Positions 15,001 to 18,000 of a stretch of 64,000 bases of DNA are shown here, one piece after another. Position numbers: made by a program. Source of the stretch: Escherichia coli O127:H6 str. E2348/69 (lineage in GTDB: Bacteria; Pseudomonadota; Gammaproteobacteria; Enterobacterales; Enterobacteriaceae); NCBI RefSeq assembly GCF_000026545.1, contig NC_011601.1; one strand, written 5' to 3'. The first letter of the stretch is position 1; every line of letters begins with the position of its first letter.

Positions 15001-18000
15001 GTCTATGTTCGTGACGATCGCAACGCCGGTTCGACCATGCCGGCAGCGGTGTGGTTCTCATACTCTCCCGACCGCAAAGGCATCCACCCACAGCAACATC
15101 TGGCGGACTACAGAGGTATCCTGCAGGCCGATGCATATGCGGGTTACAATGCTCTTTACGAAAGCGGTCAGGCAACCGAAGCGGCTTGTATGGCACATGC
15201 CCGACGCAAGATCCACGATGTACATGTCCGCCATCCAACGACAGTAACGGGAGAAGCGCTCCGTCGTATCGGGGAACTGTACGCTATCGAGGCTGAGATC
15301 CGCGGCAGTCCGGCAGAAGAGCGACTGGCGGTCAGAAAAGCCAGAACGGTACCGCTAATGCAGTCGTTGTATGAGTGGCTCCAGGGGCAGATGAACACGC
15401 TGTCGCGCCACTCGGATACAGCGAAAGCGTTCACCTATCTGCTGAAGCAATGGGACGCTCTGAACGAATACTGCCGCAATGGCTGGGTGGAGATCGACAA
15501 TAACCTGTGTGAAAACGCCCTCCGGGTAGTTGCACTGGGGCGGCGTAACTACCGGACGTGGTTTCTGCCAGGTAAAGGCAACGGAACAAAAGAATCATGG
15601 TTTTTCCGGAACCGGCCACACCATGAATGACACGATGCCCGTCACCAATATTTCTGGCCAGAATCTCCTGCTGAATATCCATAATTTTGATTTGTGAGTT
15701 CTGTTTCACGGTCACTTCAGGAAACAGATGGGCGCGCAGAATATCCCTCATCCGGGGTGTTACCCGGGTTCTGAACCCCGTGGTAAACATCCCGGCAATT
15801 TTTTGCCGGAATACCTCAGGTAAAACAGACTGCGTCATTTCATCCTGACAGATTGTCTGTGCTGAAGGAAAAATCTTTTCCACCGCATTCTCATTATTCC
15901 CTGTCAGTGCCTTCAGTTGCTGACGGGTAATGCGGGTAAACACCACACCATACGCCCAGGCCAGGTTCAGCCGCCCCTTATACTGACCGTCATTCTGCCG
16001 TAAGCACGGGTCAGCAGGTAAGGCATTAACCGTATCACAGGCATAACGACGAACCTGTACCAGCGGATTTATTTCTGATTTCAGAAGACCGTCGGTTTCC
16101 AGTGTAACCTGCTCCTGATTTGCTTTACGTAATGTGGATACAGTCCAGTCCTTGACCTCCAGAAATACCAGCCCGTTATCCGGGTCAATAATGACAAAAT
16201 CCGGATGTCGGTTTTTCCGTCCCACCGGGATATCGTACCAGACAAAGCAATCATCATTCAGAAAGCTCTCCAGTCGTGAAGCCACCCTCCTCTCCCCTGG
16301 CGTCATTCTCTCCTCAGTGGACGCTGATATATTTATCAGTTTCGCCATAACATACTCATGCTCCAGTAAAACCATAACCGTCGACATATTCCGTCTGAAG
16401 GGAATATGTCGAATACTTCATTAAAATACAAACATTTAGTAAACTTCACTACGCAAGTGCAATTATCCAGTCCCGTCTAATGATTAAAAACGATAACCAA
16501 CTCCAACAGTAAATCCATTGACCGAATGTTTTCCATATATATCTGCTTTAGTTCCCTCATACCCAACATTTACAGACATATTGCCCCACGGATTAATAAT
16601 AACACCAGCTGCATAAGCAAAATCAGTGGATTTTTTTGATACAGACTCACTTAAATATCCATCAGACTCATCAGCACCCACACTGTTTCTCCACTCATAA
16701 TCTCCCTTCGCTTTAGTATGAGATATCCCCACCAAACCATAAAAACTGATATAGTCATTCAGACGATAAGCTGGGCCTGCGAGAAATGAATAATATTTAA
16801 TATCAGCCTGATGTCTGTAAAAATCGTCAGCTTCATCGCGATGACTGTCCGCCCAATCACCTTTCATATACGAAAAACTCCCGACGACACTGACCGGAGA
16901 ATCCCACTCATATCGATATTGCAGATTCACTCCTTTAATATTCTTAAAGTCCTGTACCTTACTCTGAGCATAACCAGCCGATAGCGTATGATTATCAGCC
17001 AGTCTTGAACCACTCATAACAGATAATATCATTACTGAAATTATAACGAGTTTTTTTCATTTAACCCTCCTTCATTAATAAATGATTTCTGAAAATCAAA
17101 AAGGACCACACATCTCAAAAACATTATTTGAAATCATCATCAAAAAACTATAAATATATCACCTGACGATTTGAACACACTGACAAAAAACCAAGCATGG
17201 TAATAAACCGAACTCCCCACAAACTTCTGTTGCCTCAGATACTCCCCCCCCCTTTCCTCAGGCACAAATGTTGTTCCATAACGAACCAGCCCTGTTCCTT
17301 TAAACTCTGCATCAATGGCATAATGTATACTCACCAGACTGAGTTTGCTCCTGCATCATTATTTCGATACGTTAATGCATTGTTCATTGCATCCGGCATT
17401 CCCCATCGAATATTTACTTTGTTATATCAGGCAGCCCATAACCAGGTAAATTTTTAAGGCTTACTGACTGAATATTCAAAATGTGTTACATGTTATCAAA
17501 CCTTTAAAGAATAACCTGCTCTTCTTCATTGGCCGGATTTAGCTCAATCTTGTCAGCAAAACTAATATAAAGCCGTTCATAAAGAGAAGGATGTAGCTTC
17601 GTTATTTATCTTTTACATGTAACAGTGCCAGGGGATATTCCGCACATCTCTGTGGCTATCATCCCCACCACGTCTCCAGTGGCAGCACCTGCGGCACTGG
17701 CACGGGCGTTATTTCCCTGTACCACCGCCAGTGCAGCATTCACCACGGCATGGGCTGCCACATTTGCAGTCTTATTCACCACACCTGTAACCTGTCTCTT
17801 ATACACAAATCCCCACCCGGGGATTTGTGATGTCTGTCAGTCTGCTTTAGGGGGACTCTTTCCATCCGGTAGTTTCCTTCCTCCCCGGCAGCGATTTTTT
17901 GAACTTTTTCTTCACCCGTTGATCTTCTCTTATATTTCATTTTCTTCGGGTCTGTTATGGTACTTTCTGATTGTTATTCACTGGCTAACGAGCAGTCTGG

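Follow-up and report, generated by a model that had tools for sequence, protein, structure and literature searches.

Nuclease-helicase immunity of the Nhi type was reportedly described by Bari et al. in 2022. A 'Nhi-like' system with a NERD domain, attributed to Millman et al. 2022, is listed in PMC10952713. Another candidate of comparable layout is C3a187 ('NERD+UvrD', exemplar Dole_0738), a type III CRISPR-Cas-associated PADLOC candidate family that was nominated from three co-occurrences only (Shah et al. 2018, RNA Biol, PMC6546367). UvrD-like helicase modules are further found in GajB of the Gabija defence system and in the RT-associated NERD-helicase of UG34 cluster 485 (Mestre et al. 2022, PMC9226505). 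Here, we analysed a stretch of 64,000 nucleotides from Escherichia coli O127:H6 str. E2348/69 (contig NC_011601.1; hereafter the window), in which a minus-strand open reading frame (ORF) is very probably the non-functional pseudogene remnant of a NERD + UvrD/PcrA-like SF1A gene that was cut by a deletion and spread with its island.

The ORF at 15431..16387 on the minus strand comprises 318 codons. Its native part (15553..16348, minus strand) covers codons 1-264 of 595 plus 2 nt, or ~44% of the gene, and is 98.0-98.4% identical in DNA sequence to intact genes at L003:12001-12799 and in the L002 locus. Because this 98% identity is to the 5' part of intact 1746-nt E. coli genes, the ORF is not a chance ORF. 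The translation departs from the intact protein after ...LYLAETT, and the non-native tail (15431..15552, minus strand; 41 codons and a stop) is antisense IS66 tnpC. Counted from the ATG at 16348, the chimeric ORF remains open for 305 codons. This ATG (MAKLIN...) is most likely the real start, rather than 16387, since homology begins there in three comparisons: that to the strain M217 gene starts at MAKLIN; the homologues of Cedecea neteri and of locus L007 align with the remnant from their own residue 1; and query residue 1 (MTPGERR) aligns to position 15 in most of ~100 distant cluster representatives. The in-frame upstream extension (16349..16387, minus strand) is probably non-coding, as homologues and the PADLOC profile begin at MAKLIN.

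The remnant retains a complete nuclease domain. Pfam NERD (PF08378, PD-(D/E)xK-type nuclease) matches ORF residues 30-122 (16022..16300, minus strand) with E=5e-11 and 43.5 bits, above the gathering score of 22.1. The predicted catalytic motif hPDF...LEVKDW (16151..16201, minus strand) is intact, including D50, E64 and K66 in the numbering of the 595-aa protein. The Walker A or SF1 motif I sequence GSGKT, read directly at 15599..15613 (minus strand; residues 246-250), is the last helicase motif kept. All motifs past the joint are absent, namely DEGHD at 349, Q381, R413, G538 and T571/R572, and from the complete SF1A set (Walker A, Walker B DExx, III, IV, V and VI) the remnant thus keeps Walker A alone. 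Without Walker B (DEGHD) and motifs III-VI, the product is predicted to be unable to hydrolyse ATP or to translocate. The PADLOC C3a187 'NERD+UvrD' model matches the remnant with E=1.5e-60 across profile positions 1-238 of 559 only, a full-length match being reached by intact E. coli alleles. The remnant is an ordinary pseudogene relic already annotated by RefSeq, where PGAP labels it an incomplete pseudogene, 'nuclease-related domain-containing protein, missing C-terminus'.

These results uphold the preliminary description in its main points. It had proposed a relic of a gene with a NERD-like region and a Walker A motif that runs into IS66 sequence, and the profile matches, the GSGKT motif, the antisense tnpC tail and the 98% identity to intact NERD + UvrD-like SF1 helicase genes all agree with this. 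The ORF is present over the span it gave, but the likely start at 16348 and the native end at 15553, not 15431, narrow the gene-derived part. It was also right that only the N-terminal part survives; the native residues number 264, however, and not about 280.

Compared with intact alleles, the remnant carries 10-11 synonymous and 1-3 non-synonymous differences (dN/dS 0.03-0.09), among which D138N is the single private non-synonymous change. With one private change and a dN/dS this low, decay beyond the truncation is not visible, although dN/dS has little power here because the divergence mostly predates the truncation. Judging from these sequence differences, the scar appears young relative to the divergence of the alleles. 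A simple scan for a sigma-70-like promoter upstream on the minus strand found none, which is weak evidence either way, and a promoter and terminator scan of the minus strand yielded nothing above chance.

Matches to the remnant occur in ~1033 of 5426 complete E. coli genomes, and the intact gene is patchily present in ~600 of them (~11% of E. coli). Genomes of the 95-99% identity class carry the 1746-nt gene, which PGAP names '3'-5' exonuclease'. Intact alleles include WP_022645125.1 of strain M217 and WP_149026010.1 of strain C8. Its product measures 595 aa from the MAKLIN start (581 as annotated), combines Pfam NERD, UvrD-helicase, UvrD_C and UvrD_C_2, and matches C3a187 with E=1.4e-138 over profile positions 15-556 of 559. 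Across an alignment of 69 diverse family sequences, D50 never varies, and conservation reaches at least 90% for E64 and K66; the Walker A residues G243, G246, G248 and K249 are likewise invariant, as are D349/E350 (DEGHD), Q381, R413, G538 and T571/R572. Given that the PD...ExK triad and the SF1 motifs are conserved in these 69 homologues, the family is predicted to be a catalytically competent nuclease-helicase.

An AlphaFold model of the intact protein reached a pLDDT of 92.7 and a pTM of 0.89. Searching the PDB with Foldseek returned UvrD, PcrA and Rep (2is4, 1pjr, 1uaa) as best matches of the helicase half, and the overall nuclease-plus-SF1 layout resembles Schlafen 11/14. Sequence search and Foldseek against the PDB yielded only these helicase parts and no solved structure of a close relative. 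The family is mainly proteobacterial, with ~40% identity to the E. coli protein, and spans 565 clusters at 50% identity (E<1e-30). This breadth derives from a search of 50% representatives and a genome scan, the first homologue search having been saturated by near-identical E. coli sequences. A phage-borne origin was rejected, with four weak partial matches among 50,697 phage records.

Among the described systems, C3a187 shares the two-domain architecture of the intact E. coli protein, which its model matches end to end. However, the type III CRISPR-Cas association on which C3a187 was nominated does not extend to the loci studied here: cas genes were absent from the window neighbourhood and from the E. 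coli, Cedecea and other loci examined, and Cas1 model matches were seen for 2 of 144 nearest neighbours in other species, beside reverse-transcriptase model matches. Like the Nhi-like system, the intact protein is a single polypeptide with an N-terminal NERD nuclease and a C-terminal SF1 helicase; this combination is present in intact alleles, and the helicase is lost in the remnant. The gene also appears to stand alone with variable neighbours, as would fit a one-gene defence system. On the sequence level, the PADLOC Nhi model matches the remnant with E=0.036 at residues 237-266 only (the Walker A loop), and its E value against the intact protein must be worse than 2.4e-5, as it is absent from the best 25 matches. 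Because the Nhi model does not recognise the protein past the Walker A loop, it does not belong to the same sequence family as Nhi.

The intact helicase half shares all SF1 motifs, as well as UvrD-helicase, UvrD_C and UvrD_C_2, with the SF1A helicases UvrD, PcrA and Rep. It differs from them in scoring far under the equivalog cut-offs (70 bits versus 911 for PcrA), in its extra N-terminal NERD nuclease and in being accessory and island-borne rather than core. GajB and the RT-associated NERD-helicase also have a UvrD-like module, and their PADLOC models match the intact protein at ~1e-21 (GajB) and 3.8e-14 (RTasNERD-Hel). These matches are much weaker than that of C3a187, and neither a GajA nor a reverse-transcriptase partner is found here.

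Next to the remnant lies an IS66-family element without its right end (13062..15552, plus strand), which retains 2491 of 2709 bp and encodes tnpA (13144-13818), tnpB (13815-14162) and a truncated tnpC (14182-15552), all on the plus strand. IS66 homology runs from 13062 to 15552 and helicase-gene homology from 15552 to 16350, with a 1-nt overlap at the joint between the truncated tnpC and the truncated NERD-helicase gene (15552..15553). The copy is 99.6% identical to L004:1663-4153, part of a complete reference element of strain 5264 (L004:1663-4371) that is 2709 bp long, ends in an inverted repeat and is accompanied by an 8-bp target duplication (GAAAAACG). The window copy stops 218 bp short of the end of that element and so lacks the right inverted repeat and 61 tnpC codons. 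Since the IS66 copy is itself truncated, the joint is a deletion scar between two broken partners and not an IS insertion. The gene does abut IS66, as the term 'IS-truncated' in the preliminary description implied, but simple insertion was rejected because the right end of the element is missing. The tnpC frame (14182-15630, plus strand) continues without a stop for 26 codons into antisense sequence of the NERD remnant, so that two chimeric ORFs overlap tail to tail at 15431-15630.

A 300-nt junction query matched 403 of the 5426 complete genomes from end to end, among them O157:H7, O55:H7, O111 and O127:H6 strains; other genomes match only one half of the query (positions 1-150 or 150-300). 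The identical joint in 403 genomes points to a single origin and to spread with an OI-122-type pheV island. As a clean marker of a single event, shared by several serotypes, the IS66/NERD joint at 15552/15553 could help to trace the spread of the island.

The region is a pheV island that comprises tRNA-Phe (pheV, 10615-10690, plus strand), a tyrosine integrase (10888-12153, plus strand), an ISEc8-type (IS66-family) transposase fragment, the IS66-family element, the remnant, an Ail/Lom gene and a tssE pseudogene. Beyond the tssE pseudogene follow IS debris, espL2, nleB, nleE and efa1/lifA. We take this pheV island to be the OI-122-type island of EHEC and EPEC. Such naming is consistent with PMC5852577. 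In the OI-122 papers, Z4322 serves as a module-1 marker only, and its identity with the remnant ORF is putative. The 4.2 kb tested from the window are 100% identical to E2348/69 and 99.9-100% identical to many O157:H7, O55:H7 and O111 genomes. The ISEc8-type fragment, located between the integrase and the IS66 element (12270..12890, minus strand), is part of the IS accumulation that has taken the place of the ancestral 3' region. IS debris is dense around the remnant, including this fragment and a frameshifted IS4-family transposase (17957-19226, plus strand), with further IS1, IS630 and IS256 fragments downstream, as is typical of the modular decay of the pheV island.

Upstream of the remnant, its neighbour is the Ail/Lom (PagC-like) outer-membrane protein gene (16484..17032, minus strand), which also adjoins copies of the NERD-helicase gene in strains C8, ST130 and C5. 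It is followed by a tssE (GPW/gp25) pseudogene (17140..17605, minus strand), frameshifted and with an internal stop according to PGAP, where tblastn with the TssE proteins of Cedecea and L007 produced matches at 17212-17590. In strain C8, the gene is intact within the same island backbone (integrase ... intact gene - Ail/Lom - tssE'). The C8 segment from tssE' through Ail/Lom to the gene is 95% identical to window positions 15552-17762, and its integrase, of the same type as that in the window (94.6% identity), lies 4.7 kb past the 3' end of the gene. Relative to C8, these 4.7 kb and 991 nt of the gene are replaced in the window by IS66-family material. The match between C8 (L002:18546-20037) and the window (10673-12164) covers the integrase together with an att-like repeat formed by the final 18 nt of tRNA-Phe. 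The C8 integrase adjoins Rhs, yafV, ivy and fadE, and a tRNA gene was not found in the 25-kb C8 locus, which suggests that all or part of the island has been relocated or rearranged.

Two other strains carry truncations of the gene. In strain C5 (L094:8649-9754), 1144 nt with a frameshift remain, and the tssE'-Ail/Lom context is that of the window; strain JML285 (L096:9488-9892) keeps 405 nt beside IS100 and a truncated leuX-island integrase at tRNA-Leu. These two truncations are independent inactivations.

From these comparisons we infer the following order of events. The ancestor would have encoded one 595-aa polypeptide in which an N-terminal NERD (PD-(D/E)xK) nuclease was followed by a UvrD/PcrA-like SF1A helicase. 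Its gene would have occupied the tssE-vasL gap of a type VI secretion (T6SS) cluster, within a tRNA-associated island and beside an Ail/Lom gene. IS66-family elements may then have piled up between the integrase and the gene in the ancestor of the OI-122-type pheV island. A deletion would have removed the last 218 bp of the IS66 copy, the 3' 56% of the gene (~991 nt) and the DNA downstream of it (~4.7 kb in the C8 arrangement). Thereafter, the scar was presumably passive cargo as the island spread horizontally into O157:H7, O55:H7, O111, O127:H6 and other lineages.

Against a dead gene stand the open chimeric ORF, the complete NERD domain and the intact catalytic residues, features that would fit a truncated gene that is still expressed, with the 305-aa chimera acting as a stand-alone nuclease whose residual defence or toxic activity is retained by the virulence island. 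Besides the open frame and the intact PD..ExK residues, the single private amino-acid change and the identical sequence in 403 genomes speak for such a product, as does the precedent of stand-alone or differently fused NERD proteins that act as effectors elsewhere, such as ZwsA (bioRxiv 10.64898/2026.04.06.716636). Recent horizontal transfer of one island allele accounts for the conservation, however, and the RecA-like 1A domain is cut after its first strand and helix, which would likely leave an unstable stub. The independent decay in other strains argues against strong selection on the gene in E. coli, and the promoter scan and the PGAP pseudogene call also weigh against expression; a functional chimera is therefore improbable in our view. 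Hardly any probability attaches to the other reading, in which the NERD/P-loop ORF is an accessory or passenger of the IS66 element, a possibility that the preliminary description had itself raised. The ORF directly adjoins IS66 and its reading frame runs into IS66 sequence, but the complete 2709-bp copy with its 8-bp target duplication holds tnpA, tnpB and tnpC only, ~600 genomes have the intact gene without IS66 beside it, and the gene is convergent with tnpC, the tail of the ORF being antisense tnpC. Taken as the relic that we favour, the remnant is of little importance by itself, being a dead gene carried in a well-studied virulence island (OI-122 in EHEC; the pheV island of E2348/69). It points, however, to an intact NERD-UvrD candidate family in E. 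coli and to a cargo slot between tssE and vasL.

Intact homologues were also found in other tRNA-associated islands, where the preliminary description had suggested looking, and their neighbours were surveyed. Three loci, those of Cedecea neteri, L007 and E. coli O22:H8 strain 154, have the gene between tssE and vasL in a T6SS cluster that is otherwise intact (L013:150-13193; L007:1-11357; L095:579-16582). The Cedecea and L007 homologues are 65% and 59% identical, respectively; in both loci the gene is co-oriented with and tightly packed between tssE and vasL, and in Cedecea it overlaps vasL. In strain 154, IS110 and a GIY-YIG nuclease share the slot with the gene, and the far side of vasL carries a second NERD-DEAD/DEAH helicase. 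This linkage to T6SS is confined to one narrow enterobacterial clade, and no paper linking NERD-helicases to type VI secretion was found in the literature. The tssE pseudogene in the window appears to be debris of the T6SS cluster that originally housed the gene.

Across 80 loci from other Proteobacteria, no conserved neighbour or partner gene was found; the largest neighbour family occurs at 6 of the 80, all in Bradyrhizobium. This lack of a conserved neighbour fits a stand-alone gene. A 101-aa downstream ORF was rejected as a required partner because it is frameshifted or stopped in some strains with an intact helicase gene. Defence-like neighbours do occur elsewhere, including TIR and matches to DRT, PDC-S02 and PDC-S09 models. 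The handful of DRT, PDC-S02 and PDC-S09 matches among the 144 nearest neighbours are raw counts without a background rate and are suggestive. Near E. coli copies lie a GIY-YIG nuclease, IbrA/IbrB-like pairs and a TerB-N/ATPase/DEAD-helicase triad.

The most likely role of the intact protein, at about even odds, would be that of a stand-alone, Nhi-like anti-phage or anti-mobile-element nuclease-helicase, and a one-gene anti-phage role would be plausible. Alternatively, the intact ancestor may not have served in defence at all, but rather as a helicase-nuclease in DNA repair or recombination, or as an accessory factor to the T6SS cluster. The co-oriented, tight packing between tssE and vasL in Cedecea and L007 is in line with this, as are the PGAP name '3'-5' exonuclease' and one distant homologue among the housekeeping genes xseA and guaBA, although that synteny was seen at one locus only, was not reproduced elsewhere and was rejected as a guide to function. 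Set against a non-defence role are the lack of a conserved neighbour in the 80 loci, the restriction of the T6SS link to its narrow clade, the patchy presence of the intact gene in ~11% of E. coli and the TIR, DRT or PDC defence genes among some neighbours. The O22:H8 slot, with its GIY-YIG nuclease and IS, looks like a cargo hotspot, and a hotspot of this kind is more likely than a functional role in T6SS. We consider a non-defence ancestor rather unlikely. Also doubtful is the more specific proposal that the intact family is an uncharacterised single-gene anti-phage nuclease-helicase, that the tssE-vasL gap of Enterobacterales is a previously unnoticed integration site for defence genes and that the remnant would be its fossil.

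Intact copies often lie near a pair of PAPS-reductase-like (IbrA) and ParB-like (IbrB) genes, which directly flanks the gene in strain SMBL, and some lie near the TerB-N / ATP-binding / DEAD-helicase triad. The pair and triad loci are L003:16433-18288 and 19737-24791, L005:18569-20424, L006:18464-20319 and L093:13596-17601, and both the pair and the triad look like defence-island content.
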